A DNA stretch of 56,551 nucleotides, counting the filler, from Stramenopiles sp. TOSAG23-2 (Eukaryota), in NCBI GenBank assembly GCA_900128395.1. It is 5 parts of 5 records of this genome, joined end to end, with 100 filler letters (N's around TTAATTAATTAA, not from the genome) between each part and the next. Parts side by side here need not be neighbours in the genome. Positions count along the whole stretch, not along the records: positions 1 to 11,263 come from LT649949.1; 4 more parts are not named here. One strand, written 5' to 3'. The position numbers were made by a program, and so were the translations under genes. Each line of letters opens with the position of its first letter. Position 1 is the stretch's first letter. Below are positions 2,106-55,100 of the stretch, piece after piece. Below the pieces are notes generated by a model. That model searched no databases. It was not told where the DNA came from and saw nothing but the letters and a program-made list of their open reading frames with translations.

Positions 2106-2557
2106 ATAAAAATTATAAAAAAATAACACATTATAATGTGGAGAAGTAATTTTTATAATTTTTTAAAAGATATCATACGTGTTTTTATTATATATATATA
2201 ATTATACGAGTACCACATAATATATACACACACGTAAAAATTACGAACTTTGTAAAAAAGAATATTTTTTCTTTTAATTCCTCGTACGCGCGATATATGA
2301 TACGTATCATACTTTAACTTTTTTTTTTCACTTTCTCTACATTGACTTTTGTCTTATTTTAAATACATGTCCTCATTTTACTTTTTTCATGTTTCTTTTT
2401 TTTTTTACATTTTTTTTGTTTACAATATATTTTTTAATATTATTTCTTTACACATGTTAAAACGATTAATATGCAGTTTGAATGCATCCAGTATGTTTTG
2501 AACATACTTTTAAAACCGAATTACGCTACCCCTGACCCTAACCTAGCTTTCGTTTAA

Positions 2558-2663
2558 ACAAACACAGTGCAAGATTCAAACTCCACAAACACGGTGCAGG
2601 ATTTTCGCAGGTAACTACAAACATGGTGCAGGATTCAAACTCCACAAACACGGTGCAGGATTA
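2558..2663 (-). repeat. Four-copy AATCCTGCACCGTGTTTGT array directly after/overlapping the EF-hand gene stop codon
   Basis: Plus-strand units acaaacacggtgcaggatt at 2558, 2585, 2617, 2644 (0-2 mismatches); the last unit overlaps the TAA at 2663-2661. Confidence 0.9.
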
Positions 2664-5600
2664 TGGATCTACCATCTCACAAAATGTTGGATAATGGCAT
2701 TGATCTGTTTTTCCTGGAATAATCATACCAAATGCCTTTAACAAGCAATCTTGCTCTTCTTTTAAAGGTGGTAATAAATTTAAAAATCCTAATACGCATG
2801 TAAATTGATTTTTCGTAACTGTTCCCCTATTTGTTTTATCGTAATTTTGAAATGCTTGTTTTACATTCATTCTACGTTCACGTACGATACGTTTTATGTT
2901 CAGTAAAATGGATTGTAATGCATTTTGATTTACACCAGTTGCATCAACGCTAAAACGCCATTTTTTCCACGTTGGCAACCCTTTCGTTGGACTCTGTTCC
3001 AAATGAACGCGTTGTTCAATATCCAAGAAAAATTTATTCCAATACACTTCATCATCATGCTCTGCACTTTTGTATTTTTCACATAATGCTTGTTTCTCTT
3101 GGTATGTTAAACGAAAGTTTGTCCCTAATGCAACATCAAGTGCGCGATGCATTTTACCCATGGAAATCGCACCACTACGAAGTTGATCGTAATCTTTAAA
3201 GAAAACATCTAATGGTATACCACGACTTTTCACATGTTCACGTATGCGTATCATGACATCATCTAAATCTACAGGGGCACTTTTACTTTCCACTTTTGAT
3301 GCTGCGGAAATACTGTAATTTTTCTTTGTTGTTCTTTCTGGTGGATCAATGACATCGCAAAATTTCTTGTAATTCACATCGTATAATTCTTTCGATTGCC
3401 CAAGGGAACGTACTGCAAATTCACTTTTTGCAATTAATGGCATGATATCGGTAAATCGTGTAGTATTAAATACTAAGGATAAACATCGAACGAAGCTATA
3501 TGTATGTATGTGTGTGTGTGTGTGTATTTGTATATGTGTGTGTTAGTTTTGTTGTTTTTATTGTTTTTATACATGGTGTGTGTTTGTGTATATATATATA
3601 TATATAAGTAGTGTGGAAATGTATGTGTGTGTGTATGAATGTAAAGGTTGTCGTATAGTTAAATACGCTAACACTCCACAAACACGGTGCAGGATTACCA
3701 CCCCACAAACACGGTGCAGGATTATCACACGGTGCAGGATTACTCACCGATCTTGTGGTAATAATCCACGTTTATGCTTATCCAATTTTTGAAAGGACAT
3801 GCGTGTTAATATATTTGCCCTTGTTACCGTCTCCTTCATATCTCGTAAATATTCATTCAATTCATACCGTTCCTCTTCAGTCAATGATGTTTCATCCGTA
3901 TAACCAGCATCGATAACTTTTTGCGTTGCGCCCATGACATCCATCGTTGGATTTCTTTCTAAATTTGCAACGGTGAACACAGATTCTAAATCAGCAACAA
4001 ATTGTCTCCAATCAATCGTTGGTTGAAAGGATTTCCACGTATCCTCATCCAATGACCCAGTCGCTAAATAAATTGGTTCTAACATTTGCAATTGTGCTGC
4101 TGATAAATCTGCAGCTTGGCACATTTCTTTAATACCTTGGCGAAATTTATATATATTAATTTTACCAGTTTGCAATGGATCGCTATCACGGAAAAATTCC
4201 TTCGTGCGCAATCGTCTACCACGTACAAATTGACGAATTCTCCACATCACTTGATCTGCATTGCTGCCTTTTGCTCTCCATGTATCGCCAACATATGGTG
4301 TCTCTGACATTGGCACACCGCCGCCGCCATCATCTTTCTTTCCCTTATTATTATCCATTCGTACACTGCCAACTGCGCCGACTTCTTTTAAAAATGGTCG
4401 GTAACGTACCAACGTAGTGCCATATCCACCGCCACTTTGGTATCCATATTTTTTAATAATGCATTCTAATACTTCATCTTCCTCCGGGCGTATTTTACGT
4501 AAAGACAATACATCTTTTAAAAATGGTCGGTAACGTACCAACGTAGTGCCATATCCACCGCCACTTTGGTATCCATATTTTTTAATAATGCATTCTAATA
4601 CTTCATCTTCCTCCGGGCGTATTTTACGTAAAGACAATACACGTTCAAATTGATCACGTGTCACTGCACCCCTTGAAGTGCGATCGAAATCTCTGAATAC
4701 ATCTTGTAAGGACATGCGTGATTGATTTACAATCTGTTTTAAATTTCTTAAACCGATACGTAACAGTTCTTCTTCCCCATCAGTTAATTGTGGCAATTGT
4801 ACACGTGGTGCATGTGCAATTCTCCATGGTGCAGAATCCAATCCTTTTTGCGGGCTACGTTCTAAATTTTTAGCAGTAAATGCTAAATCAATGAAGGAAC
4901 ACATCGAACGGTAATCAACGAAATCATCCGGTCCTGGTATGGCATATTTATCAGCAAGGCTATCCATCTCCGCTTCCGTAAATTCACTTGGTAGACACAT
5001 ATACATGCATGTTTTGAATTTTGGTCGTTTAATAACACCTTTTCTCATTTTATCGAAATCATCGAAAAACATACGTAAGCGTATTTTCCGTTCCGATACG
5101 ATACGTATTAAACGTTGCAAGATTAATTCTCCATCATTTGGTCTCCAACTTGCAGATAAAATTCCCGTATTTGCACCACCACCAGCAGTTGTTGGGTTCA
5201 ACAACTTTGCACTTGCATTTCGCTGTGCAATTTTTTGCTGTTCAATAGCTTCCCGTTCTTTTGGTGTACTTTCCGCATCACGACAAAATGCTTTGTAACA
5301 GATACTTTCACCATCGGAATAACTTTTTGCTAATAGTTCACTTTCCACCATATTAATATCTTTTGGCAATGCCGTTTGCAATGCACGGTGAAAGCGACTT
5401 TCACTTACAAATCCTGTGTTATTTTTATCAAAATCTCGAAAGAAGATTTTTAAAATAACACCACGATCACGTTGTGCTTTGGAAACATTTACCATAATAC
5501 CACGTAATTCAGCGCGTTCCGTGGCAGTTAAAGGCAATCCATATGGTCTTGGATTTGCACCAGCCAACGCTAAACGTACTTGTTTCGTTGGGGAAAGTTC

Positions 5601-6811: not shown

Positions 6812-9800
6812 ATGATGAAAAGAAAGAAAATGGTTTGTCATCGTAATAATAATAATACAAATGATTCTTCCAATCATCATATGAAAAGGAAACAACGCCA
6901 TTATTATTATTATAATAATAATAATAATAATAATAATCAACAACTTTTGTATATTCTTTCTATTGTTGCAATTATATTTGCTTTATTTATATCCCCAACA
7001 TATTCACAAGTTGTGGAAGAAGAGAAACGACCACAACCACCTGCAGAAGAAGTAACTGCAAGAAATGCGGATACTAGCTCATATACAAATATCTTGAAAC
7101 AATTGGAACAACCAACGGGTGCTGCTGCTGCTACGACAAAAGCATCGACTGATGGAGTGAAGGAAGAGAAACAAATTCCAAATACAAAACCAGATATTGC
7201 ATCTCCTGATAATAATATGTTAACATATGAACATAATAAATTTGACTATGTCAAGTTACAAAAGATTCTTCACGATAAAACAGCAGATTTTCAAATGAAA
7301 TTTCTACCAGGGCGTGTGAATGTGAAATTAGGTAAAGTTACAATAGATGCATTAAAAGGTCGTCGTAGTGAAGATATTGGTGCAACTGGAGAAATTAACA
7401 ACATTTTTGACCAAAATAGTAATAGTAAAAATAATAAACAAACAAACGGTAATGGTATTAGTAGTACGAGCCGTGTGTTTGGTATAGATGTAAATGAGAA
7501 ACATGTTCATCATTTATTTAAAGGTGCGATCACCGGTATGGAACAACAACAACAACAAGACGTAGCAAATTTGGCAACTGGGCCAATGGATGCAACTGCG
7601 TTGGAATCCGTAGCGTCTGAATCGAAATTACCACAAGTTGTTGCTTTAAAGGAACAAGTAGAAGATGCAAAATTTGAACTTGCAAAAATACCGATAGATG
7701 ATTTAGAAAATCCATCGTATGTAGGGGCAAAGAAAAAATACGATGATGCGTTAGGACGATTACAAGCATCATTGATGCCCACCGGACCATCATCGTCATC
7801 ATCATCCTTTGCACAACCACCAACTGGTGCTACTGGCAATACCAATTATATAAATTTCGATGCACCAACTGGTAGTGTGAATAATAAGAATAATGAAATG
7901 ATACATAACTCTGCTACGTATCGTGTGTTAAAACCTTCTATCTTGCCATTTGGACCAACTGGTACTCGCAATGGTGAAGGTGCGTTACTCGATGCAACTG
8001 GGTTATTAATAGCTAAAAAACGACATGTTCAATTGTTGAAAGACATTGAAATACTTAAAGATGAATCGGAAATGTTGAAAAAATCAAAACGTATGAACGA
8101 AGTAAAAGTAAGACAATTGCAAATGGAAGAATTAAAACAAAAAGTAGTCAACGTGGAAAAAATGATTCAAGATGCTACTGGTGGTGCAACTGGTGGTACG
8201 TCTACTGGTGGTGGAAATGATGATGATTCGATGTATTTTACGTCAACAAGTACTGGTAATAGTAACGGCAAGAAAAAGAAGAAGAGGGAGGAGGAGAAGA
8301 AAAAGAAGAAGATACCTTTTGATGCAACAGGTACTGAGGCTACGACGACGACGACGTTGACTCCAACAACAACCTGTGATGAATGCAAATGTGATAAAGA
8401 AACGGATCAAGTGCAATATGAAGAAGTTCATGGGCATAAATATTGCTATTGCACATCTGCAAATTTTATCACGAAACGTAGACGTTGTTTAGGGCCAATT
8501 CCAAGGAATAGGCCAACTGCTTGCGAGGCATGTGTCTGTGCAGCAGATGAACAACCATTTGGACAAGTTCATACGTTTAAAACATTTGGTGGTACAAATG
8601 CATGTTTATGCGCTGGTAAAGTATCAGTTGGTCGTAGTAAAATATGTAGTGGTGAATTACCAACGGCATATGAAAAGACGATGGATTGTTCATTAGCAAA
8701 ATGCAGTGGTGGTGGTGGTGATCCGGGCCAACGTATTGTATACCAAGCATTAGGCGATGTCAACCGTTACTATTGCATCGATGTACGTACGAATAATCCA
8801 ATTACGGAGCCAAAACATTGTAAAGGTTTTATCAATGCGAAAAAATTATGTACTACATGTACGTGCAATCCAAATGGACGCGCACCCGAACTGGTATATG
8901 AACGAATGAATGGTAATAACATTTGCTATTGCAAAGGTGCAGATGGAAATACAATTAGTGAAGTGTGCCATGGGCCATTACCAAATGGAAACGTCGCACC
9001 ATCTAATATTGCACCGCGTACGGAATCCAATAATTTAATGGCAACGATGTATGGCAATAAAAAATATGTACATTATCAAAAACATTTATCAATGGAAAGC
9101 AAATCTGCAATACAACGTTTAAGGCAAGCATTGAATATTTTAATCGATAACAATGCCTCGTTCCAAGAAATGTTAAATGTCATGAAAAGTTTATCGCACC
9201 AAGTGAAGGCGGATAAAAATTCAGCGGATTTAATCCATTCCTTAGATGCAAAAGGTTGCGGGCATTCCATTGCGGAATATAGTGCAGAAGTGAAACAAGC
9301 GTTGGAACGTAAGCAACAATGCATTGCAGCCGTGAAAGAACGTGAGGTGGAAAGCAATTCTGCAAAGAAAGAGTTTATTAAATTAGTGGATATGGATAAA
9401 TTTGGAAAAGGTAAAATTGCTGATATTAAACGTAGAGAAAAAGTATTAAGTAAAATTGAACAAGCGGAGATGGCATCTGAATTTGCAACGAAAGCATCGG
9501 AAAAGATCTATAAAACTACTATGAATGCATTGATGGGAAATGTGCAAGAAGGGTTGAAAAATAGTGATCCATCCATCGATGAAGATTTAAAAACAAAACC
9601 AAAACCATCCACAACATCAGCAACGAAAGTCGTGCAACAACAACAAGAACCATCGTCTTTTTTAGAGAAAAAAGAAAATATCGTAGAATCAGATATTCTT
9701 ATCAAACAAGAATCGCAAACTGTTGATAAAGTATTAAATTCAATTGCAAAGAGGAAGATACGTAGGAGGAGGCATAATAATAATATGAGAAGTAGTAGTA

Positions 9801-11061
9801 GTAATGGTGGCAAAACAAATAATAATAAGTATGCAGCAGCAGAGGCAGCATCAAAATCGTTACCAAAAGATCCATCAAAAGACAAAGCGTCTACATTGCA
9901 AATACATAAATTTCCAAGGCATACATATAATAACGTCGTCGATAAATGGCATAAAGAAATCAAGGCACATGATAATTTAGAAGAATTAAGTAAATTAGCC
10001 ATGGGTATTCATTCCACCGGGGAGAAAGTGGAAAAAACGATGGAATTGCCTAATGCTGCGGATCAAATGAAAAATTTGAAATTAACGTTGAAAGATGAGA
10101 AAAAAATGGTGCAAACGAATATCTTAGCAAATGATATGAAACGTGGTAATTACGATCGTTTACGCGTGCGAAATGTCCAAGCGAAAGCGGCATTGGCAAC
10201 GGCGGAGCAAAAATTAAACGATGCAAACGTCATGTTGCGTAATGTGAAAGAATTTAGCAATACCATTTTAAGCAGCTGTAATTTAAAATCAAAGCGTTAC
10301 AATGAAGAAAATAAAGAACGTGTGAAAACCATACGTTTAACGGATGATTTAATCGTAGCAATTGAAGGTGCTATTAATGGTGGTGGTGAAAGTGATTTCC
10401 CGAATGTACGTTTAACGGATGATTTAATCGTAGCAATTGAAGGTGCTATTAATGGTGGTGGTGAAAGTGATTTCCCGAATGAATTGTTGTCCGTGGAAAA
10501 AGAACTGCAAAGTCATGAAGGTCGTAAAAATTACACAAAGAAATTCAATGGTTTAGATTTAGCAAAAGATGATTCTACTAAAAAATATTCTGCCATACAA
10601 CCAGGCAATCAATGTACATACATTGTAAAAGCTGGCGATCATTTACAATCCATTCAACAAAAATTTAACATTGCAAATGAAAAAGATCTTAGAAATGCAA
10701 ATATGAATTTAGAAAATCTGTTTGATACGCAGCATCTGAAAATCGTGTATCCACCTGTCGGTACATACGTTGTCGTTCCGCGTAAATTTATTATTACAAA
10801 GAAATTGAAAAAAATGTGTTCAAAAATACAACGTGCTGTAGAAAATACAACCGTGCCTGTGAACCATTTCGTTTTGGAAGATGATGAAGATATGCAAGAT
10901 CAAACGAGAAACCATACGACGTTGCGTGAAGGTGACGAGAAACATATGGAACAAAATCCATTTTGCCATTCAACAATTATCCACGAACACAACCAATTGA
11001 ATAAATTGTTCGTTTTGGAAGATGATGAAGATATGCAAGATCAAACGAGAAACCATACGAC
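6812..11061 (+). CDS. Large secreted/membrane-anchored protein with four Cys-rich repeats, coiled coils and a LysM domain; 3' end incomplete
   Basis: Hydrophobic LLYILSIVAIIFALFISPTYS segment; CxxCxC...C-x-C...C-x-G-x-x-P repeats 8375-8983; YIVKAGDHLQSIQQKFNI...LRNAN LysM signature at about 10619-10781; ORF ends at a GTGAGT donor. Confidence 0.8.
10332..10481. repeat. Exact 75-nt in-frame tandem duplication
   Basis: 10332-10406 identical to 10407-10481 (RLTDDLIVAIEGAINGGGESDFPN twice). Confidence 0.95.
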
Positions 11062-11063
11062 GT
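10868..11063. repeat. Exact 55-nt direct repeat, 141-nt offset, in frame
   Basis: 10868-10922 identical to 11009-11063 (FVLEDDEDMQDQTRNHTT twice). Confidence 0.95.
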
Positions 11064-11183
11064 GAGTACCTTACCTGCACCGTGTTGGCGTATTCGCCTT
11101 ACCTGCACCGTGTTCCTTACCTGTTCCTTACCTGTTCCTTACCTGCACCGTGTTGGCGTATTCAACTATACGACGACAGCCTC

Positions 11184-11228
<45 letters not shown>

Positions 11229-11263
11229 TATATATATATACATATAACGGAAAAAGAAACAAA
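11062..11263 (+). other. 5' part of an intron carrying CCTGCACCGTGTT repeats, homologous to intron 3496-3747
   Basis: GTGAGT at 11062; core at 11074, 11102, 11142; tail 11150-11174 is 23/25 identical to the tail in the other intron; then (CA)n; no clear acceptor before the contig end. Confidence 0.75.
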
Positions 11264-11363
11264 NNNNNNNNNNNNNNNNNNNNNNNNNNNNNNNNNNNNN
11301 NNNNNNNTTAATTAATTAANNNNNNNNNNNNNNNNNNNNNNNNNNNNNNNNNNNNNNNNNNNN
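11264..11363. other. Artificial contig linker
   Basis: N44 + TTAATTAATTAA (stops in all six frames) + N44. Confidence 0.98.
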
Positions 11364-12608: not shown

Positions 12609-13246
12609 NNNNNNNNNNNNNNNNNNNNNNNNNNNNNNNNNNNNNNNNNNNNNNNNNNNNNNNNNNNNNNNNNNNNNNNNNNNNNNNNNNNNNNNNNNNN
12701 NNNNNNNNNNNNNNNNNNNNNNNNNNNNNNNNNNNNNNNNNNNNNNNNNNNNNNNNNNNNNNNNNNNNNNNNNNNNNNNNNNNNNNNNNNNNNNNNNNNN
12801 NNNNNNNNNNNNNNNNNNNNNNNNNNNNNNNNNNNNNNNNNNNNNNNNNNNNNNNNNNNNNNNNNNNNNNNNNNNNNNNNNNNNNNNNNNNNNNNNNNNN
12901 NNNNNNNNNNNNNNNNNNNNNNNNNNNNNNNNNNNNNNNNNNNNNNNNNNNNNNNNNNNNNNNNNNNNNNNNNNNNNNNNNNNNNNNNNNNNNNNNNNNN
13001 NNNNNNNNNNNNNNNNNNNNNNNNNNNNNNNNNNNNNNNNNNNNNNNNNNNNNNNNNNNNNNNNNNNNNNNNNNNNNNNNNNNNNNNNNNNNNNNNNNNN
13101 NNNNNNNNNNNNNNNNNNNNNNNNNNNNNNNNNNNNNNNNNNNNNNNNNNNNNNNNNNNNNNNNNNNNNNNNNNNNNNNNNNNNNNNNNNNNNNNNNNNN
13201 NNNNNNNNNNNNNNNNNNNNNNNNNNNNNNNNNNNNNNNNNNNNNN
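12609..13246. other. Intra-scaffold sequencing gap (638 N)
   Basis: Run of N without the linker sequence. Confidence 0.98.
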
Positions 13247-14827: not shown

Positions 14828-17689
14828 GTGACTAACATTAAAAAGAAACGTAAGAGAAAGCGTGGGCGTGATGAGGATAATAACAGACATGATGATAATG
14901 ATAATGAAGAAAGTGGGAATGGCAGAGCTGGAGATAGGAAGTCTGCTAAAAAACGTCGGCATATAAGTGCTCCAAAATCATCGAGTAAATTACAACGGGA
15001 TCTCCAAGTTGCAACTCCCGTTTCAAGCGATAACGATGACAATGTTGATATAAGCAAGAAAACAAAAATTAATATAAAAAATACGAAGAAGGAAAAAAAT
15101 ATTTTGGAATCATGCCTATCGAAATCAAATGATGAAGGTCCATTGACTTCCATTTTATCAACATCGGCTTCTTCTGTAAAAAGTAAAGGTATAAATGAAA
15201 ATCGATCGAATGGTTTTCATGCCCATCAAAAGAATAATTCATCGAGCCATGATCGACGTGTTAGTTTTGGTAAATTTAACAGTGGTTTCGGTAGTAGCGA
15301 TTTAAAGTCATCTCCAAGTGGTGGAAGCGCTTTATTTGATGATACCATGAATACGACATCAGACACAAACGGGGGCGTCTTTGGTAATTCTCCTACTTCG
15401 AACACACGATTAGAGTTTGATGAAAAACGTCGTGTTGGCTACAATAACAAAGGTCTTAATGTTTTAAAATCATCAATATCATCTGTATCGCCATCGAAAC
15501 CTGAATTTCATAAATCCCCGGAAGCAACATATGCTTTATGGGGTAATGATCCTACAAAACATAATTTTGACAAGCCATTTAATAAATACGAAGCATCGAA
15601 AAAGAAAAATAACTATCTCAATTTTCATTTACGTAATAATAATAATAGCAGTCCTTATAATAATTATATGAACGCCAATCAACGATATCACCGTCAGCAA
15701 TTATACCAACAAGAACAGCAGCAGCAACAACAACAATATTATTATTCTCATCAACATGATGGTTATTATGAGGCTATGCCGAGCCACTATAATCACACAA
15801 TTTATGAAGAAAGAAATGACAATAATATTTCGCAGCAAGAAAGTCGGGATTTTTTAGCATATCAAGAATTACTGCGTCAAAAACAAAAAACAGGACAGCG
15901 ACCATTGTATCAAACAATGCGTTCCCCATCAGGCGGAGTAATTAATATTGATGAAGAGTATGATCCTCTATATCGCTTGAATCTAATTAATAGTATTGCA
16001 AATCGAAATAGTTATACCAATACTAGCACTCCGCACTCTTCAGTGCCACATCATGAGAGGGGAACTATGGCTTGGGAATTAGAACGTGAAGAGGCAGATC
16101 GTAAACGTATTGAACAGTTGAGAGTTGCAAAATCTAGTCTTCGATCTTTACGAGAGAAAGCGAAAGAGCATAATAGCAATGATAATATTAGTATTAGGTT
16201 TGGTAATAATAACCTTTTACCTGAAATTAAGATAAGCCCTCGCAAAAATGTTTCTAATTTGAATCAAGATACAGATGTAGGCGAAAGTTATTTGCATGGA
16301 GGTAATCAAAATGATAATAGTGCTAATAATATTAATGGCGCAAAAACAACAAAAGTCGATCTTCCAACAAGTAGTGCGCCGATATCATCAAATTTATCTC
16401 ACAAAGAATTATCCAAGTCTTTATTTGCTTTTACTAAAGTTAATATACCTGGTGTAACAGATGGCAGTACTCGTTTTGGATCAAATAGTAGCGTAACATC
16501 GTCTAGAACAGATGTTAATAACTCTAATAAGCATATTTCGTATGGAAATTTTGATGCATACATGGATAATACGGTGCAGGAAGAAGTAGAAAGTACAGAC
16601 AATGATACCAAAATAAAGTTACCAAGCAATAGCGTATCACTAAATAAAGAATTGGAAACACCATTATTTAGTTTCGCAACTACATCCACAAATTGCAGCA
16701 GTAAGGATCAATCTTTTATGGTGGAAAGCAATGTCAATAACTCTAATAAGCATATTTCGTATGGAAATTTTGATGCATATTTTCCACCTGGAGGAGATGA
16801 AATTAATGACGCAATAGAAAGCGAGGAAGAAGAAGGTGAAGATCACGAGGAGGACACTATCAATTCTTCTAGACCATCATTCGAACCCAGAATTGAGCCT
16901 GGTGATCTTGCCCGTGTTGAATTAGCATGGAATCGCAATCTTGATGAAAGAGATGTGGTGATTGATAGTACCAAACATGGAAAAGATCACAGAGACAGGG
17001 ATGTTATATATGAGAGTGAGGTAACACGGAAAGACTACAAATCGTTAGTTCCAGGTTCATGGCTGAGTGATGGTATTATAAATCCGTATATTAAAGTTTT
17101 GAGAAATATATGCCGTATAAATAAGCTGAAAATCCATTGGTGGCAAACATCGTTTTTTATAAAGGTATATAATAACGGCGATTTTGCTTACAATGAAGTG
17201 AAAAGATGGGGCAGAAGGGTTATTGGTAAGAACATTTTTGAAATGGACAAAATGTTTATACCTGTGCATAAAGATGGATCGCATTGGATATTAATCGAAG
17301 CATGTATGAAAAGTAAAGAAATTAAATTTTATGATTCGATGTTAGGCGCGTTAGATGAAAAATATGCATTCAAGATGATGACTACGATTGCCCAGTATAT
17401 CAATAAAGAAGGTGAGCAAAAACAAATTGAAGGTTTGAATGCAATGGATTGGAAAATGTCAATAGTTAAAAATACACCTCAACAACGCAATGGTTATGAT
17501 TGTGGTGTTTTTATGTTGCAAAATGGACGTGCGTTGATGGGAATTATTGATAATGTAAATGGTATACAATTTAATCAAGGTAATATTGATTACTACAGGT
17601 ACTTGATTGGTGCGACATTGATTGATCCGGAGAAATATGCACCTAAAAGTGTTGAACATGCTGAGGAGGAAATGACAATGCAAGTGTAA
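14828..17689 (+). CDS. Ulp1/SENP-family SUMO protease (peptidase C48) with long disordered N-terminus; start uncertain
   Basis: [23 protein letters not shown] (His), FYDS (Asp), [12 protein letters not shown] (Gln/Cys). Confidence 0.92.
16512..16779. repeat. 49-nt in-frame direct repeat (219-nt offset) in the Ulp1 CDS
   Basis: 16512-16560 vs 16731-16779, 48/49 identical ([16 protein letters not shown] twice). Confidence 0.9.
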
Positions 17690-22610: not shown

Positions 22611-22710
22611 NNNNNNNNNNNNNNNNNNNNNNNNNNNNNNNNNNNNNNNNNNNNTTAATTAATTAANNNNNNNNNNNNNNNNNNNNNNNNNNNNNNNNNN
22701 NNNNNNNNNN
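22611..22710. other. Artificial contig linker
   Basis: N44-TTAATTAATTAA-N44. Confidence 0.98.
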
Positions 22711-33935: not shown

Positions 33936-34035
33936 NNNNNNNNNNNNNNNNNNNNNNNNNNNNNNNNNNNNNNNNNNNNTTAATTAATTAANNNNNNNNN
34001 NNNNNNNNNNNNNNNNNNNNNNNNNNNNNNNNNNN
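33936..34035. other. Artificial contig linker
   Basis: N44-TTAATTAATTAA-N44. Confidence 0.98.
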
Positions 34036-37000
34036 AGATCAGAAAAGGATAAAATTAATAAAATTCTAACCCCATTATTCGCAAAATATCGCATTGACAT
34101 ACAGCATGTAGCAAAACTAGAGAAAGATTTAAATACTTATAAATCTAATTTGCAAGCGGAAAAACTATTTTTAGATAAGTTAAGCTCTAAAAATACAGAT
34201 CTTAAAAATGAAATTAGTCAATCGGAAAGTTTATTTCAAGATACTGGTGCAAACGTGAAGGCAATGACAAAATTATCAGACGAATTCCAAGACATCAAAC
34301 GAGTATGGTTCAGTAGGCAGGAATCACTTTCTAAGATTTTCAATGAACAAACAGTTACAGATTTAGCAATTTCTACTATATTTATGGTTTACATCGGCCA
34401 TGCTAATGAAGCTGGTAGAGATCTTCTTTTATGCAATGCTGCTTCAATTTTGGTTGAACATGGATTTCCAATTCAGAAGGAGAAACGTAAGTTTTACACT
34501 GATTTTAACATTGATAAGTTATATGTTTCAATGGAGAGACAATTTCTGAGTAAGGCCATAATGCAAAACTGGAAAACTAATGGTCTTTTTGACAATGATT
34601 CTCATAATTTTGTCAGTTGTATTGGATGCCACTGTTTATCAAAAAAGTATATCCCTATTTTGTTGGACCCTTCCGAATACGGTAAAACTTGGTTAGAACG
34701 TACGCTTACACAGCAACAACTTTCACATGTAAAAAAAATAAACAGTGAAGAGAATTACAATGAAATGGGTGAAGTAGATGTGCTCCAATTTATATTCGAT
34801 GCAAATAAATTTGAAGTAAAAGATGTAGATCTAGCTATTTCCAATAATTATCCAATTGTTTTTACGAATGTAAATTGCGAATGTATTTCGTCATATTTAA
34901 TAGAGTTAATAGAAAAGAAACCTGCCTCAGGTTTATTTTTATGTACGAAATCTGTGGAACCACATGTATCCTTCGCTTTATGTGAATACGACGTCATAAC
35001 ATTTAATTTTGCGGAAACAGCAAATGTAGTTAAAGGACAAGTCTTTGAAGGACTGCTTAAGTATAAAAACAATGATAGATTTAGGAAATATAAATCTTTC
35101 ATGATGGAATTACTAAAGGAGGAAAATGACTTAGATAAAATAGAGCAGAACATTATGAAGATATTGACCAACTGCGACACTAGTATTGTGGATGATGTTT
35201 CAAAAAGCGAAGTTTTGTTACTGATGAACCTCAAATTAGCGCATGACAATTTACGAAGAGTTATTTTATCAAGGAAAGAAACTATTTTAAGTATTAAAAC
35301 AGCAAATCATATAACTGTGAATTCATTGAGCAAATTTTATATACGTACTAAGCAACTTAAATCGATTTGCTACCTGTATCAATTTTCAATTATAGAATTC
35401 TTAGATCGTGTAAAAAATTCGATGAAAGTATATTATCAAAAAAAAAGACAAGTAGGCATGGAAGATGAAAATAAAGAAAATTTGAATATTGTTACATTGA
35501 TAAAGAATTTTCCAGTATTTATGTTATACCAAGTCTTTTTATGGGTTGACAATGTTCTTTTCTTTCGACATAGATACGCATTTGTATTTCTTCTGGCGTT
35601 GGATCATCTTGTAAACATAGTTGAAATTACCCAAGAAGACCTTGACTTGTACATTGCACATGGCGGATTTTCTGCAGTTCATAGCAGTAGCGAGCAGGAC
35701 GACGACGATGATACAGATGCCGATGGTAAAAATAAAAAAAGGAATGATTATCCATTAATACATTCTCTATGGTTGAGCAGTTCCTCCTGGTGTTGCCTCA
35801 AAAATATGAAGAAGCTGGCTGGAATGCAGACTTTAATTAACAGTTTAAAAGAGAAAACCAGTAACGTTGCTTGGGAAACGTGGTATAGTAACTCTATCAA
35901 ACATGGCAACATAGCAGAATTTCCTGTTTTGCAGTCTAGTTTTACCTCTAGTTCTTTTTTAAAAGTCGTTTTCATCACGTCTATAAATCACCCTTTAGCT
36001 TTTAAATGCATACAATCTTTCATTGAACAAACATTAAATCCAATATTTTTAAATGATCATTATGTTAGAATCAAAGATATATACAACGAATCAGCGGAAA
36101 AACAGTTAATATTACTAATTAGTGGCAGCTTATCCGATACCATAGCTGAAGTTGAACGAATAAGTATGCGCAAGCGAATTAAATCTAAAATTATCGACTT
36201 TCATAGCAAAGAAAAATGTAATAATGTAACAGAAGACGTCGAAACTTCGAAACGGAACGGGAATTGGTTAATATGCGACTGCGTAACTTTTGATGTTCAA
36301 ATAATGAATCAAATACTGGATATAATCAATACTGAGAAAGCTTCTACACATGAAAATTTTAGATTATGGGTTTGTACTACAGAAACTGCTTGTCGTCTAC
36401 GACACAAGCAACCATCATTTCCTGAGAAATGGATTATACAATCAGAAAAATATGCAATAGAAATTGCTGAAAATGCTGGATTGGCAATGAAAAATATGTA
36501 TATAAACAATTTTTATATACGAGAGTCATATGTACATGTTGAAAATTTAAGATGGAAAAAAATGCTATACATTATAACTTTATTTCACTCTGTAGTAATC
36601 AATAAATCATTTATTGGAAGTGAAGATAACAATGAAAACTTATTATTGGATTTGAATAGGACAAACTTGAACTCAAGCTTAGCGGTCTTAGAGGCTACAT
36701 TAGAAAAAATGCCAAATGAGACAGATCCTGTGGATAGCCGTTTCGTATCTCTCATAGTAGGTGAAATAATTTATGGTGGATACGCACAAGAGTTAGGCAT
36801 GTTAAATGAGTTTATTGAATTAGGAAATCATTTATTTGTCAATAAAGTTGATAGATCAGAAAAGGATAAAATTAATAAAATTCTAACCCCATTATTCGCA
36901 AAATATGACATTGACATAGACAAATCGTTTAGAACATTTGAAAAGATGCACAAATTTATTATTGAAAATAATACTAATAGTTTCAATGATTTGAGTGACG

Positions 37001-37368: not shown

Positions 37369-39265
37369 TTACCCTTGTACAGCAGATAAAGCAGTCTTAG
37401 TAAAGTCCATGATGTTCGGAGACGTTTGAAACGATATCACATTTTGTGCTAATGATTCATGGTTACAATTGTCATGGAACCTAAAAATATAATGGTTAGT
37501 AATTGTAATAATTTAAATGATTTTAATGATTTACTTACCACATAGGGGTTACCGGTGAAGACCACGGCGCACGGATGACACTTTTTTCAATTCCATTAAA
37601 CATCAGCGTGTTATGAATTTGTCCAATGCCACTCTGCACATCTTCAGGAGTATGGTTGTAATAACCACCCCAAGTGCAAGGAGTGCAGAAATAACCCAAT
37701 CCAGTTGGAGCGTTGACGCAGACAGATCCATATTTTAAATCAGCTATAGCCTTTTCACATGCCTCTTTTGATTCTTTTTGCAAATCAGGTGGAATGAAAA
37801 TTGAACAAGAGAGTGTTCCCCATACTTTTTCATTACAGAATTTGGTTGCTTTTTCAAGGAAATCAGCACCACTTGTGGAATCAATCGTAATTTCTGTCAT
37901 TAAACATGTCCAAGCTTCGTTGCAGCAGGTATGTTCACAACATTTTTCATTTGAAGAAACATCTTCGATGATAGTCCAAGGAAGAGCTGAATTTTCATTA
38001 TTTGGTGATTCCCAATTTTTTTTTTCAGCAGCGCCATAAACTTGTTTAAACTTGTTTAACCTGTCCCCAGCGCCAGGATAATAGGCACTCCTTGTTTGAC
38101 AGGCATTTAAATTTTTACGCAAAGCATTTAAAAACTCACCACGTTGCGGCCAATTCTTCGCAACAATAATATTTTGAGCAGCTAAACAATTGAAATGTCC
38201 ATTATGTACACACATAGACACAACTGCTCTTGCATGAAATTCAATACTTTCAGCAGACCATTTTCCAGGTGAAATGATATATGGAGTTGCCGCACCCAAT
38301 TCAGCCATAAATGGTTTGCTAATATTTTTTTTCCCCGATTTTTTGTTACGTGCAATAACATCTCTCATGGATTCATTTGTTTTTTCCCGTGGTCCCCACA
38401 TAATTGCATCATATGTTTTATCTGAACCTGTCATATGTATTCCATCAATACCATTATGATGAATTAAAGCTTGTGCAGTTTGAACACCGCCACAGCAAAT
38501 TTGTAAAATACCAAGATCAACTAATGGTTGAAATGCTTTAATCATATGTGGTTGTAAATAATCGTTTACTGGGTTTAATTTGCAAATCAACGAGACACCT
38601 TCTGAAAAGACAAGATGTGCAATATCACAACCAACAACAGTAGCTTGATTACCTGCTCCTAAACAAAGCCAGGTTGCTTCTTCATGATCCATCGGATTAT
38701 TTATTGTTGGCTCTTCATGAAACCAAAGCTCCCCGGCATAACCACCAAATAACATATGTTGGTACAAACCTCTTGGAAATACATTGGCAATTTTACGCCC
38801 ATCAGGACCATCAACAATAGAATTTGCTTGTTTTTTCAAACCACTTGCGCCAGATTTTGCAATGATCTTCAACGACTCACCTAATTCACGACAAGTTGCT
38901 ATTGTTGCACTCCAAGCAATGGTTTCTTCCCCACGCCCTGTCTCGTATGAACCTTTAAATTTAATGCTTTCAGTAACCATATCATTTGTTGCCTTGTTAC
39001 AAGTTTGAACACATTTAAACGCAAGTTCAGAACGTTCACTTGCAGACATTGCTTTTAATTTTGCAGCACCTTCTTTTGCTGTAGCAACCATGGCTTCTAT
39101 TTCATCATCTGTTGGAACATATGCTGGAGTCATATTTGTTTCCTTCGTTGCTGGAACTCTATTTTTAATACCTTTGCCGTTTATACCACCTCTTCCAAGC
39201 AAATATGATAGTCCACCAACTAGTGGTGAGGATACAATACCTAACGTTGATTGTACTGAATTCAT
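37369..39265 (-). CDS. Aldehyde dehydrogenase superfamily protein; two exons join(39265..37539, 37480..37369)
   Basis: LGAGN, KLNPVN, HMTGSDKT, AELGAATP, HNGHFNCLAAQ (catalytic Cys), LKYGSVCVN; splicing adds WFHDNCNHESLAQ...AVQG*. Confidence 0.9.
37481..37538 (-). other. 58-nt canonical U2 intron
   Basis: GTAAGT donor, TACTAAC branch point, TTTTTAG acceptor, in-frame join TG|G. Confidence 0.93.
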
Positions 39266-45256: not shown

Positions 45257-45356
45257 NNNNNNNNNNNNNNNNNNNNNNNNNNNNNNNNNNNNNNNNNNNN
45301 TTAATTAATTAANNNNNNNNNNNNNNNNNNNNNNNNNNNNNNNNNNNNNNNNNNNN
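45257..45356. other. Artificial contig linker
   Basis: N44-TTAATTAATTAA-N44. Confidence 0.98.
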
Positions 45357-50267: not shown

Positions 50268-51965
50268 ATGGAAACACCAACAAATGCAAATGATAGTAAC
50301 AAGACTACCAGTGATGACAACACTAAGTTGAAACAAAAATTAAAACAAGTGTTAATAAAATTAAAACAAGCATTATTGAAAAATAAAAATTATGAGAAAG
50401 AGATTGAAGCGTTAAAAAAACAGAATGAAGAAGCAATAATAGGGGAAAAAGAAAAAAATAACGACGATGGGGATCAATTACTATTATATAAGGAAAAGCT
50501 TAAAGATATTGAGAAAGATAATTTAAAATTATCCAATGAAAATAATCAGTTAAAATGGCAATTAAAAGATGTACAAAATAAATATAATGCAATTAATGAT
50601 GAGACTAAAATAATAAAGGAAAATAATAATAATTTAATAAAACAAAATAATAAGGATACAAAGGAAATAACGGTATTGAAGAAAAAGTTGAAACAAGCAT
50701 TATTAAAATTAAAGACAACAAAAAACGAATTACAACAAAATGCATATGAATTGGATTCAATGAAATCGAAGTTTGCTGAATACAAAGATCAAAGTTCAAA
50801 AAGTTTACGTATAGCCAATAATAAAGTTGATAATATTGTTTTGCAACAAGGGTCATTCGTGGAAATCAGAAAAGAGCTAGAAGATGCTCGTGCCCAATGC
50901 GATAATGCAATAGTAGATTTAAAATTTGCTAATGAAGAAAAAGATAATTTACGAAAAGAATTAAATGAAAGAATCAAACAAACTAAATTATTGCAATTAA
51001 AGAAAGATGATACTACAACGAAAAAAAAGAACATTGAATTATCAGAGAAAATAACAAATTTAGAAAAGGAAATAAAAGATATGGAAAATGAAAATTTAAA
51101 AAAAGATAAAAAACACCAACAAGAGTTGTTGAAAAAGACGGAAAATGTGCGTAAAGCAATATTTGATCAAGAAAAAGAAGCGCTTGAAATGAAAAAACAA
51201 TTTGCAAAAATGAAAAATGACTTAGAAAGTGAAAAGAATAAAAACGAAAAGTTAAATTTGAGATTGGAAAAGATACAAGTTGAATATAATAAACAGCAAG
51301 ATGAAACACAAAAGGAAGCGGAGGAAATTGATGTAATAATGAATTTAGCAAAGGAACAAGCAAGTCGTGATAGTAATATGGAATTTATGAAGAATAGAAT
51401 AGCAGATTTAGAAAGTGAAGTGATTGAATTGAAAAGAACGAAAAATGCTCAAAACGAAGAATTAGTATTATTACAAAATAAAAAAAAAAGTAGGGAAATG
51501 GAGGAAAATTTAAAATTAGAAGAAATTGCATTAAGAGAAAAACGGGAAAAAGATTTAGGGGAAGTCGATTCATCAAATAATAATGATAATAATACAATCA
51601 TTAGTAAGGACAGCAATAACAGCAACAGTAATAAATTGGATAATGATACTAATACTAAAACAAACAATAATGTTGCGTCAAAAACTTCATCATCCAGACA
51701 AGCAACAACAGTTGAATATTTAAAAAATTGTTTAGTCCAATTTCTGTGTAGCAAAACGCTTGAAGAACAAAGACAACTTTTGCCTGTATTAGGAACAATA
51801 ATGCATTTTAATAAAAAAGAAAAGTTAGATGCAAGGAAAGCATTAGAGTTGCGTAATCAAGGTGTCTCTGGAAGTCTTATATCATTTGTATCAACATTTG
51901 CTGGAGTCAATACTGGTGGTACAACTAAAAGCAATCAACGTTCACCCGGTCCACCAACATGGTGA
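50268..51965 (+). CDS. GRIP-domain coiled-coil golgin
   Basis: Long K/E/Q heptads; C-terminal VEYLKNCLVQFL...QLLPVLGTIMHFNKKE. Confidence 0.88.
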   Translation: METPTNANDSNKTTSDDNTKLKQKLKQVLIKLKQALLKNKNYEKEIEALKKQNEEAIIGEKEKNNDDGDQLLLYKEKLKDIEKDNLKLSNENNQLKWQLKDVQNKYNAINDETKIIKENNNNLIKQNNKDTKEITVLKKKLKQALLKLKTTKNELQQNAYELDSMKSKFAEYKDQSSKSLRIANNKVDNIVLQQGSFVEIRKELEDARAQCDNAIVDLKFANEEKDNLRKELNERIKQTKLLQLKKDDTTTKKKNIELSEKITNLEKEIKDMENENLKKDKKHQQELLKKTENVRKAIFDQEKEALEMKKQFAKMKNDLESEKNKNEKLNLRLEKIQVEYNKQQDETQKEAEEIDVIMNLAKEQASRDSNMEFMKNRIADLESEVIELKRTKNAQNEELVLLQNKKKSREMEENLKLEEIALREKREKDLGEVDSSNNNDNNTIISKDSNNSNSNKLDNDTNTKTNNNVASKTSSSRQATTVEYLKNCLVQFLCSKTLEEQRQLLPVLGTIMHFNKKEKLDARKALELRNQGVSGSLISFVSTFAGVNTGGTTKSNQRSPGPPTW

Positions 51966-52158
51966 GTGATAATATATATTAATATATATATTATCATACT
52001 TTGTATGATAAAAAGATAATTCCGAGCAGAGATGTGTATGTGTTTGTGTGTGTATAATACGGAGTAATAATTTTCGTTTTCTATATATAGAGACTTAAAA
52101 CTACGTAGCGTATCATATTTTACATTTTATAAAAATGAATAAACACACACACACACAC

Positions 52159-55100
52159 TCAATCGACCATGGATTTGATTCGATTTCTAACAATATTAAT
52201 AAAACTCTCAATATATAATTGAGGATTTTGTACTCCTTGCGATCCTGTTTTAAACACAAATGCAATATGTTTCGTTGCTTTCGTAAAACTACATTCAACC
52301 ATATATAAACGTGTGGTATTTCCAGATTTAATTTTTTGTTCTGCATAAAAGTAGAATTTCGAAACACCTTCTTTTTCTCCACTTGCCATGCAATGGATAT
52401 GATCTTTCATCAATAAACGTTCTAACTCACCATCAGGCAATGAAGTTTTTAATCTACTACCCCATAATTTCGTAATATCCATTTGTTGCCATCTTCTTTC
52501 ATATTCTTCTGGCTCCAATGTAGGATTCGATATAAAGTTCAAAAGTGGATATTCTACAGGTTTCTTTTGTTGTTGTAGCTGTGGCATATTATTGTTGCTA
52601 CTTCCAGCCACACTATTTGCTGTCTTTCCAAAATTATTTACATTATTACCAAATGCATTTGCACCTCCACCAGTATTGTTGCTACTTCCAGCCACACTAT
52701 TTGCTGTCTTTCCAAAATTATTTACATTATTACCAAATGCATTTGCACCTCCACCAGTTGTAGCCGTGCTTCTAAATCCAAATAACTTCTGAACCTGATT
52801 ATTGTTATTGTTATTATTGTTATTATCTGTATTATCGTACGTAAAAGAATACCAATGCCAATTTTTTAATATGAAATTTGCGTCCAGCCCCGCTTTTTCA
52901 GCGATGGCAGCGTTCTCTACATAGGATACGTTCGTAACTTTTGATTGCCCAGCATTCATGGTACCTGCATCTATAACAGTTTTGACAATGTATTCTTGGT
53001 ACCCTTGAATACCACCACCAAAACCACCACCAAAACCAAAACCACGTTGAACAATTTTAGCATCATTCAAATAACTTCTGAACTTTTGTGAAAAGCCGGT
53101 AATTTTAACAATTCTACCGCCATCGTGGGGCTGATACACCACACCGCGTGGCACATTAGTTTTAGTACGTGAAAATCCACATTCAGATATTTTTTGGTGT
53201 AATATATACATTTCCAACCTTGCTTCAGCACCTGCTGGTAAATCTTTTACCCCTTTTGCGCTGACTGCGTCTTGAAATTTTATAGTTCCAAGATTTTTTA
53301 CACCTACCATTGTCGCCTGATCAAATATTGCACCATTCACTTTAGCATTACCTAAGTTTACATTACTGAGATTTGCCCCGGTAAAGTTCGAATTACTTAT
53401 ATCAGCATTTGAAAAATCTGCATCTTGTAGAGACCTATTAGGTCCTGAGAAATCAGTACCAACTAAACTTGCCTTTGTAAAATTTGCACGTGTCAAATTT
53501 GCATTTTTAAACTTTGTAAGAAAACTTGTCTTTGCGGAAGTGAAATTTGCGCTTGTTAAATTTGCGTTTTCCAAATTGACATTTATTAAACCGCATTTTG
53601 TAAAATCACCTCCAACTAACTCTAGATCAGAGAAATCAATTCCAGATAAATCGCATTTTTTAAAAATGGCACCTTTCAACGTTGTATTTTTAAAAATGGC
53701 ATCCTTCATCTTAGCAGTAGTAAAGTTTGCTTCACTTAAATTTCCCCCAGAGAAATTAACTGATCGTAAATCGGCATTTGTAAAGTTAACTTTCGACAAA
53801 TTCATGCCAGCCATATCATAACCTTTCAAATCACAATTTTGAAGATTTGCACTTATTAATATCATCTTTTGAAACTTTAAATTTTTCAGTATTGCACTTG
53901 ATAAATTTGCCTCACTAAAATCAACATCAGTAACGTTTGCATCAGTAAAATTACTTTCAACTAAATTTGCTTTAACAAATTTTGTCCTAGTCAAATTTGC
54001 TTTCATAAATTTAACACTTTTTCCATTTAAATTACTAAAATCACAATCACTACATTCACTATCAACAAACAAACCTGATTCAACTTCAGCACTTGTAAAA
54101 TTTGAATTTTGAAGTTCTGCTTTTGTAAAATCAATAATGTCATCTTTCGAGCATATTTTACTAAAATTACACCGAATACATTTACTATTATCAAACACAG
54201 AACCTGACAAGTCAGCAGAAATAAAGACGGAATCTTGCAAAGTTGATTTTGTAAAATCTAACTCCTTACCAGTGCATCTAGAGAAAGATGTTTTTGAACA
54301 CTGTATTTCAGCAAAGTGACCTTCAGATATTTCGCTAGAAACAAATGAACATCTAATTAACTTCGACTTTGTAAAATCAATTGCATAACTCTTTGATTTA
54401 TCAAAATCAATTGATGTGCATTGACTCTCAGTAAAGTCTCCATCTTCAAGTACTGATTCAATGAATTTTGTTTTCTTTAAATTGCATTTAACAAAATTAA
54501 TGCTTTTTCCATTTACCTTACTAAAATCACTATCGGCAATTTCACTTTCTGTAAAAATGGCACCTTCTGCCAATGTGTTTCTAAAAAGCCCATGGCTTAT
54601 TTTACTGCATTTAAAAGATGCGAAAGAAATATTCGTAATACTTTGACTAAAATTTGAATAATTTAAGCAAGCACCATCAACATGAGCTCGATAAAAACTA
54701 GATCCTCGAAAATCAATTTCTGTTAAATCCAATTTTGACATATTCATACCAGACATGTTTCTTTGCCCATTTAAAAGTTGCATTACATCCACGACACTAA
54801 GACGTTTGTAAGCGGTTTTACATAATTTTACAAGTTCAAGTAAATTATAGCGATTGCCTTCGCGTTCAAGCCATTGTAATTGCGAGACATCTTTCAATAT
54901 AGGTAATTGGGATGGGTCTCGTAGATATTCGGCTATTAATTCAAAATAACGTGGATTACCATTAATAATTAGCATATTTTTTTCAGGGCAGTCAGATTTA
55001 TCTTGCCAAATTTCTTGATGCTGACGTAAGGCATCAAAAAAGATACTACGTTCAAATTTTACTAAACAACGCCATGGAAGTTTATAACTTCTACCACTTA

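Follow-up and report, generated by a model that had tools for sequence, protein, structure and literature searches.

The window analysed here is the whole stretch of 56,551 nucleotides, which consists of five ~11.2-kb pieces with N44-TTAATTAATTAA-N44 linkers in between. It is AT-rich (G+C ~33%, from the base totals) and carries long uninterrupted ORFs, cilium and phagotroph genes included (dynein heavy chain, CEP19, FAM221, cathepsin and hexosaminidase). The window enolase has two proteins at 87% identity, and its best named relatives are those of stramenopiles, with Rhizochromulina, diatoms and Triparma at 71–78%. The host looks like an intron-poor stramenopile. According to the run metadata, the stretch is present in 11 studies of seawater that comprise DNA and poly(A) RNA runs. 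For the MAST-4A lineage, the available text of PMC5269757 gives 33.9% G+C and introns that number 0.56 per gene and average 260 bp; as a guess, the G+C of the window, its ~11-kb pieces and its few but long introns would be compatible with these figures.

The window contains 3–4 credible introns, two of which carry the repeated element described below. Both element-bearing introns display standard splice signals, i.e. a GT 5' end, an ACTAAC branch point and an AG 3' end. A further intron is of the short TACTAAC type, as the first-pass annotation described, and ~34 nt separate its GTAAGT from TTACTAAC. The features are as follows.

2516–2562, minus strand: C-type tail TTTGTTTAAACGAAAGCTAGGTTAGGGTCAGGGGTAGCGTAATTCGG, repeated in L018, L053, L034 and L068 (sequence comparison)
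2562–2659, minus strand: copy C (W-C), four units, two exact and two variant; the stop codon TAA of the EF-hand gene (2661–2663) lies 1 nt before it (motif match)
3496–3747, minus strand: intron A (W-A) of the EF-hand (EFCAB6-like) gene, 252 nt, phase 2, 5' splice site GTGAGTAAT, 3' end ..CATATAG (frame-consistent GT..AG and RNA contigs)
3542–3549, minus strand: putative branch point of intron A, AAACTAAC, ~46 nt upstream of the 3' splice site and followed by a CA/TA-rich tract (read from the sequence alone)
3581–3625, minus strand: element segment CATACATTTCCACACTACTTATATA..CACAAACA, common to the copies in other genes L017, L034 and L076b (alignment)
3650–3674, minus strand: 25-nt tail of element A, GTGTTAGCGTATTTAACTATACGAC, a weak hairpin (aligns with L017, L034, L076b and L063)
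3682–3738, minus strand: three exact CCTGCACCGTGT units of intron A, at 3727–3738, 3709–3720 and 3682–3693 (motif match)
10868–11008, plus strand: exon segments X (10868–10922, end ..CCATACGACGT) and Y (10921–11008), joined without intron B (window sequence, RNA contigs)
11009–11063, plus strand: exact second copy of X (55 nt), immediately 5' of intron B (identical to 10868–10922)
11062–11263, plus strand: 5' part of intron B (W-B), 202 nt, in a large EGF-domain gene, cut at the window-piece end 11263 (sequence and RNA contigs)
11074–11153, plus strand: three exact units in intron B, separated by CCTTACCTG spacers; CAGGTAAGG appears five times on the antisense strand (motif match)
11150–11193, plus strand: tail of element B with GACGACAGCCTCTACATACATA, common to L005, L011 and L017 (sequence comparison)
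37481–37538, minus strand: element-free comparison intron, 58 nt, GTAAGTA..TTACTAAC..TAG (splice signals only)

Element-bearing introns and an after-stop copy in two genes of the window

Intron A is missing from the RNA contigs X11 record 1 and X8 record 21, which cover the window from 3748 upward and from 3486 downward. Exactly 9 record letters stand between these two positions, the length of 3487–3495; the aligner repeat-masks 3487–3648 in this comparison. The DNA contigs X4 record 9 and X7 record 14 are continuous from the intron into the exon, and no contig joining the exons across intron A was found among the DNA contigs aligned to the window. The distance from the first intron base to the start of the first unit is 9 nt. 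The intron differs in length between populations (234 nt in L063, 252 nt in the window and 277 nt in L068), and its predicted RNA fold is nothing special (z = −0.77).

The same EF-hand gene carries a third cluster of units in the window, copy C, which had been missed by the first-pass annotation. Its stop codon TAA sits inside an ATAATCC spacer. RNA contig X8 record 21 is unspliced down to 2633, and the RNA depth in the 2257–2632 bin is 8.8 for X8 and 19.4 for X11; since copy C is transcribed, it is taken as 3' UTR. The origin of the C-type tail from telomere repeats was considered and found no support in its sequence.

The feature at 11062–11263 had been annotated as an intron, which stands for its homologous 5' part but not for a complete copy, since it is cut at 11263. 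The rest of intron B is found on metagenome contig L021:1–194 and comprises ~38 nt, with branch point CATACTAAC, the 3' splice site ..ATACAG and the next exon. The start of L021 is the 3' end of intron B, overlapping window 11176–11263, and is followed by the 86-nt exon segment Y and its continuation C; intron B thus totals ~240 nt. RNA contigs of both runs (X8 and X11) match the window as far as 11008, and their next 30 letters are found once among the loci, at L021:195–224. The RNA contigs and the layout of L021 together indicate that the gene is arranged as A-X, intron B, Y-C, and that the RNA reads X-Y-C. The splicing presumed in the first-pass annotation is thereby supported, as both junctions, that of intron A and that of intron B, read as spliced in the RNA contigs of two studies. 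The EGF-domain gene holds a second element intron at L021:1242, 1135 nt downstream; a reading of this intron and W-B as copies in different genes was rejected, as the layout of L021 places both in one gene.

The order in the window is A-X-Y-X-intron B, i.e. an X|Y junction without intron followed by an exact second X. The Y|X junction (11008|11009) is missing from the RNA contigs. An X4 DNA contig ends exactly at 10922, the last base common to X-Y and X-B, which hints weakly at two continuations of X; over 10923–11263 X4 has no contig at all, a gap that does not count as evidence. The local structure is odd because 11009–11063 is an exact repeat of 10868–10922; the arrangement could be a chimera, a mixture of alleles or a tandem duplication in which one copy lacks the intron.

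A dispersed family of tandem units

The core CCTGCACCGTGT has 10 matches in the window with at most 1 mismatch against 0.05 expected, and all of 100 shuffles stayed below 10. Two exact occurrences of the tail GCGTATTYAACTATACGAC were found, at 3650–3668 (minus strand) and 11156–11174 (plus strand), against 0.03 expected, and the 25-nt tails at 3650–3674 and 11150–11174 differ at 2 of 25 positions. Elements A and B both start with GTGAGTA right after a long sense ORF, and both continue into TACATWCATACACAC. The architecture that the first-pass annotation attributed to the two introns is therefore confirmed in its particulars (three exact units each, 23/25 tail identity, GTGAGTA and TACATWCATACACAC), as is their sense orientation to hosts on opposite strands (minus at 3496–3747, plus at 11062–11263).

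Metagenome contigs were scanned for two exact units 5–35 nt apart, which gave 77 loci. Family members are found at 29 of these (28 with G+C ≤0.40, and L017), while the other 48 were dropped as unrelated tandem repeats (47 with GC 0.41–0.74, and L054). Together, 28 of the family loci and the window hold 49 unit clusters. About 33 distinct sites remain when locus groups with the same genes are merged. In run X7 the depth is 113–182 over the units against about 8 in single-copy flanks. The motif is thus dispersed over many loci in variant sequences, which appear in named metagenome contigs from many projects and, as both DNA and RNA, in the contigs of another four runs, so that neither a satellite local to one contig nor a library adapter or primer accounts for it.

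The unit is ~26 nt long and tandem (as in aaaatCCTGCACCGTGTttgtggagt), and its copy number varies between populations and orthologous copies. W-A, L017, L034 and L076b, which lie in different genes, align over ~170–190 nt comprising the first units, the tail and the CATACATYTCCACAYTACTTATATA segment; a non-repetitive tail of ~100 nt is common to copies in different genes. Further modules recur as well, namely the C-type tail, a 3' module bearing a branch point and, in antisense-type introns, a unit of 27 nt.

The two-unit pattern had 0 matches in viral contigs. A scan of Rfam 15 gave nothing at or above a gathering score, the two weak matches (E = 0.06 and 0.26) being far below theirs, and no transposase was seen by Pfam among the scanned host genes and loci. 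Helitron-like ends and a SINE-like origin were also tried, and neither found support in the letters of the copies. No account of the family was found in the library searched; the tables of species and families that supplement PMC9860276 could already list the lineage.

Position, orientation and boundaries of the copies

Site contexts were assigned by ORF logic, with an RNA basis in the window. An intron was kept only with long ORFs on both sides; automatic GT..AG joiner introns were set aside, since CA repeats read as open frames and make many of them spurious. The sites were distributed as follows.

Complete introns with long ORFs on both sides: 15 sites
Arrays after a 5' splice site, with contig ends or a weak downstream exon: 2–4 sites
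Arrays 4–37 nt past the last codon of a long ORF: 9 sites, all sense
Intergenic or unclear: about 5 sites

About 14 of the 33 sites are 3' UTR, intergenic or not clearly intronic, and in at least 15 introns the element makes up most of the length. The host Pfam families are mutually unrelated (myotubularin, DRC7, kinesin, CDPK, LRR, WD40 and lactonase), several hosts being without a Pfam match; together with the EF-hand and EGF-domain genes of the window they substantiate the earlier claim of homologous introns in unrelated genes. The intron of the myotubularin host falls between positions 190 and 186 of the Pfam profile, as matched by the two exons. When 224 kb were scanned strictly, 20 candidate introns resulted, of which all but three had units; this count of element-free introns comes from a biased sample, as the loci were picked through their units.

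Sense units alone are present in 8 of the 15 introns and antisense units alone in 4, while the other 3 combine sense units on the 5' side with antisense units on the 3' side. The first unit begins 9–35 nt into the intron in all 11 sense-unit introns, and the last antisense unit ends 2 to ~40 nt upstream of ACTAAC in all 7 antisense-unit introns. The stop codon lies inside the unit spacer in W-C and also in L018b. Phase 0 is represented by 2 introns, phase 1 by 8 and phase 2 by 5. The distance from branch point to AG is 32–121 nt in the element introns against 14 nt in the canonical intron. A common 5' exon motif (ATYG|GT) was too weak to claim.

Inverted unit arrays are found inside three of the 15 introns (L024, L036 and L061), which are foldbacks; the L061 intron forms nested hairpins with z = −10.9. 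The L024 contig stops within the right arm. The absence of visible terminal inverted repeats (TIRs), proposed by the first-pass annotation, holds for the two window copies and fails for the family with respect to these foldbacks. The intron ends themselves are not complementary.

A perfect 4-nt repeat between the intron start and the start of the next exon is present in 4 of the 15 introns (GTAC in L076a, L052b and L040; GTAA in L055). Three of the four bases match in 2 introns and 0–2 in the other 9; in 3 of these 9 the exon end and intron end share repeats of 3–6 nt. No target-site duplication (TSD) of shared length or sequence was found across the 15. The 5' splice-site hexamers vary by copy (GTGAGT, GTAAGT, GTACGT and GTATGT), and the donor therefore does not represent a conserved terminus of the element. 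The first exact unit begins 9–15 nt into the intron in W-A, L055, W-B, L052b and L076a, where the unit spacer (AAT, AAAAT or CTAT) fills most of the gap, and 22–35 nt in other copies. In most sense-unit introns, the resemblance over the last 40–110 nt is confined to ACTAAC and a low-complexity CA/TA sequence. Only in L040, L027 and L038a does a distinct 3' module, ..GGCTTCGCTTCGCTCGCTAT, extend to 2–14 nt from the 3' splice site; it alone was retained from the pairwise 3'-end comparison, the scores of which are inflated by masked N-N matches. Permissive BLAST coverage maps were excluded from claims on boundaries, as they overstate homology by matches that extend into exons.

Introners are operationally defined, in the available text of PMC9860276 (Gozashti et al. 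2022), as at least four similar introns in non-paralogous genes of one genome, the similarity starting at most 5 exonic or 10 intronic bases from the 5' boundary and reaching to within 10 intronic bases of the 3' boundary, with low-complexity or microsatellite families excluded. The similarity among the present copies starts within the 5' distance so worded and, in the sense-unit introns, ends short of the 3' distance. Four introns align over ~170–190 nt and 15 complete introns carry units, but the copies were drawn from related populations, by way of metagenome contigs, and not from a single annotated genome. The 5' half of the element introns is a 26-nt minisatellite and their 3' part is CA/TA-rich, yet the tail of ~100 nt common to several genes is non-repetitive. 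Removal by splicing is seen for the two window introns, in RNA contigs of runs X8 and X11, from two studies. The Introner-like reading of the first-pass annotation is therefore partly supported: it holds for dispersed, homologous, spliced introns and their 5' similarity, while the similarity stops short of the 3' splice site, TSDs and TIRs are inconsistent, and the creation of the introns by the element is no more than plausible.

The search for empty sites returned none, the element being present on every member of 8 orthologous locus groups, with locus identities of 92–99% (88.7% for L024/L072). The spliced-junction strings of the 14 other introns had no match in the DNA examined, and the sole intron-less junction found is the window's own X|Y (10907 onwards).

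Origin of the introns and comparison with known systems

The repeat is a genuine dispersed family that builds spliced introns in unrelated genes, and it is probably a new Introner-like family. How the introns arose is best explained, with a probability of roughly 0.5, by a dispersed family of non-coding DNA elements that created them. The element would be short and non-coding, with tandem units of ~26 nt followed by the non-repetitive tail of ~100 nt. A complete copy would be a foldback of sense units, a small central hairpin and antisense units, of which many copies retain one arm. As with MITE-like Introners, the elements would have inserted into coding exons at the DNA level, and copies with a 5' splice site at the left edge, an internal ACTAAC and an AG would have survived as introns. 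For some of them, the four bases that open the intron (GTAA or GTAC) would be a copy of the target site, with the next GT supplied by the element. Copies landing near a gene end would have given new stop codons and 3' UTRs, and the after-stop copies do look like insertions into the ends of coding regions. The antisense unit GGTGCAG|G resembles a 3' splice site and may be tolerated only near the branch point, which would explain the polarity of the units. Creation of the introns is favoured by the strong enrichment of introns among the copies, the 4-nt boundary repeats of four introns, the distribution of phases and the intron-less X|Y of the window. Against it stand the varying donor hexamers, the low-complexity 3' ends, the lack of a uniform TSD and of terminal inverted repeats, the many non-intronic copies and the presence of the element on both sides of every orthologous pair compared. 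A wider version of this scenario, in which an active foldback intron generator with a polymorphic 26-nt array next to the 5' splice site, in an abundant, possibly uncultured marine stramenopile, made most of the few but long introns as well as stops and 3' UTRs, and in which the window caught an intron-less and intron-bearing pair, is offered tentatively and is unlikely as a whole.

Secondary colonisation is a possible origin, albeit a doubtful one. Here the introns would be old, and a MITE-like or minisatellite repeat would have inserted later between the 5' splice site and the branch point, and also into UTRs, and expanded by slippage. With the ~34-nt space of the 37481–37538 intron, any insert would lie near both signals, as is seen. 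The variation of donor hexamers and 3' ends between copies, the UTR and intergenic copies and the change in unit number by population all agree with a late arrival, as do the orthologous introns common to both sides down to 88.7% identity; the published Introner pipeline, as given in the available text of PMC9860276, filters out exactly such cases. Old introns, however, appear rare and tiny here. A repeat that merely landed in non-coding DNA should rarely reach so small a target, yet introns account for about half of the sites. The branch-point-to-AG distance also sets the element introns (32–121 nt) apart from the canonical one (14 nt). The colonisation of old introns does not account for the sense-polarised copies adjacent to stops, for the 4-nt repeats at the boundaries of four introns or for the scarcity of phase 0 (2 of 15 introns).

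The strict sense polarity right after a coding exon, both in introns and after stops, would also be accounted for by a cis-acting RNA or DNA signal under selection, whatever its origin, e.g. a GU-rich array that aids 5' splice-site use and 3' end formation; the sense unit is indeed GU-rich (GUGUUUGUGG). Such a signal is improbable, as unit number and spacers vary freely between close populations, four introns have antisense units only, Rfam gave no match and the fold of W-A is ordinary. Still less probable is the RNA-mediated transposition of introns, whereby the intron, once excised, enters another mRNA by reverse splicing and, after being copied to DNA, recombines into the genome. The mostly sense orientation of intronic copies and the lack of TSDs at most introns fit this route, and the spliced-looking X|Y in the window DNA could indicate recombination of cDNA; against it, antisense, foldback, UTR and intergenic copies exist, and the 5' splice sites and 3' ends are not carried along with the element. 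An artefact (adapter or primer, one-contig satellite or assembly error), for which the odd exact duplications in the source assembly of the window might speak, has a negligible probability in view of the variant copies across projects and runs.

The origin of new spliceosomal introns is an old question, to which Introners are the best current answer. If the element made the introns, this would explain why introns are few but long, as reported for MAST-4 in the available text of PMC5269757. Gain, loss and change in array length would then be traceable in existing ocean metagenomes and metatranscriptomes without a culture, and the X|Y beside X-B, if these are intron-less and intron-bearing copies, would be a snapshot of intron gain or loss. 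If the repeat colonised old introns instead, the family would be a worked example of a false positive for Introner pipelines, and its strict polarity beside coding ends would still want explaining.

MITEs and foldback elements, with the minisatellites derived from them, are small and non-coding, have inverted arms and many copies, and their sub-terminal motifs can be tandemly amplified. The present family resembles them in its small size, lack of coding capacity, inverted arms, many copies and tandem amplification. Unlike them, it showed neither defined termini nor a TSD nor an autonomous partner, and its association with the 5' splice site and with the place where the coding exon ends is unusual. 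The fungal Introner-like elements of van der Burgt et al. 2012 are reportedly sense introns, similar over nearly their full length and without TSDs, and are said to share both splice sites and a stable fold. Unlike these, the present family has ends that are not common to its copies, and W-A folds in no special way.

The Introners of Micromonas pusilla and Aureococcus anophagefferens are MITE-like DNA transposons that become introns, according to the available text of PMC11282704 and PMC9860276. As far as they are described there, the present family shares with them short, non-coding, multi-copy elements that form whole introns of unrelated genes with ordinary splice signals in a marine protist, and the 4-nt boundary repeat in 4 of 15 introns fits a splice site derived from a duplicated target. 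It departs from the same description in having no constant TSD or TIR, a variable 26-nt minisatellite body with foldback arms in some copies, a similarity that ends before the 3' splice site, strong sense polarity and many after-stop copies. The introners of Amoebophrya have inverted and direct repeats that form hairpins (PMC7789003, in its available text). Compared with that account, the introns of the present family are canonical GT..AG introns, their inverted repeats are internal unit arrays and most copies have one arm; both families consist of repeated introns of a marine protist, with inverted repeats capable of forming hairpins and short direct repeats at the boundaries.

Make-up of the window and intervals of high depth

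Five pieces of ∼11.2 kb, joined end to end, make up the window, and any feature located at their ends is truncated; the joins and the single internal gap lie at the following positions.

11264-11363, 22611-22710, 33936-34035 and 45257-45356: linkers, each N44-TTAATTAATTAA-N44
12609-13246: gap of 638 N

The summed depth of contigs over two intervals is very high in both DNA runs, reaching 1234 (X4) and 472 (X7) at 1129-1504, and 104 and 113, respectively, at 9777-10152. This very high depth suggests that both intervals hold other sequence of high copy number or low complexity.

In-frame repeats within coding sequence

Several open reading frames of the window carry in-frame repeats, either in tandem (exact or 99%) or dispersed.

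4381-4638: tandem duplication of 129 nt
10332-10481: tandem duplication of 75 nt
52590-52757: tandem duplication of 84 nt
34036-34101 and 36853-36918: dispersed 66-nt repeat, its copies sharing 97% identity at a distance of 2817 nt
16512-16560 and 16731-16779: dispersed repeat of 49 nt, 98% identical, 219 nt apart

The duplications at 4381-4638 and 10332-10481 are skipped in the X4 DNA contigs as well as in the X8 and X11 RNA contigs, and are therefore particular to the source assembly or strain. The exon segments X and Y, which flank intron B (5′ part at 11062-11263, + strand) of the EGF-domain gene, are arranged at 10868-11063 in the order X-Y-X: the exon junction comes first, intron-less, and X then recurs as an exact repeat of 55 nt, with the intron directly after it. 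The X-to-X spacing of 141 nt is a multiple of 3, as with the in-frame tandem duplications.

Further introns and arrays of the C-type tail

A second intron type was observed among the metagenome contig loci found via the two-unit pattern.

L010:3274-4741, L027:650-920 and L038:5964-6279: introns of the second type

These introns run from tandem 27-nt units (ATGTATATATCGAATCTCACATCACCT) through antisense CCTGCACC units to a common 3′ module that carries a TGACTAAC branch point, with ..GGCTTCGCTTCGCTCGCTA near the 3′ splice site; the intron of L040 ends in the same module. A further small palindromic repeat, cctacctgccagaggttggcgag .. ctcgccaacctctggcaggtag, and ccaacctcaggcagg repeats are nested in the element introns of L038 (lactonase gene) and L040.

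51962-52223, + strand: candidate intron of 262 nt

This candidate begins GTGAGTGATAAT and carries a putative TTTCTAAC branch point; the open reading frame downstream of it spans 27 codons only.

The C-type tail, the sequence following the units of the copy 3′ of the EF-hand gene stop (2562-2659, − strand), occurs in tandem with a period of ∼65 nt and one TTAGGG-like motif.

L018:1806-2488, L053:60-339, L034 (within a 750-nt intron) and window 2516-2562: C-type tail

In L018, sense arrays follow the stop codons of two convergent genes, forming a large inverted arrangement between them.
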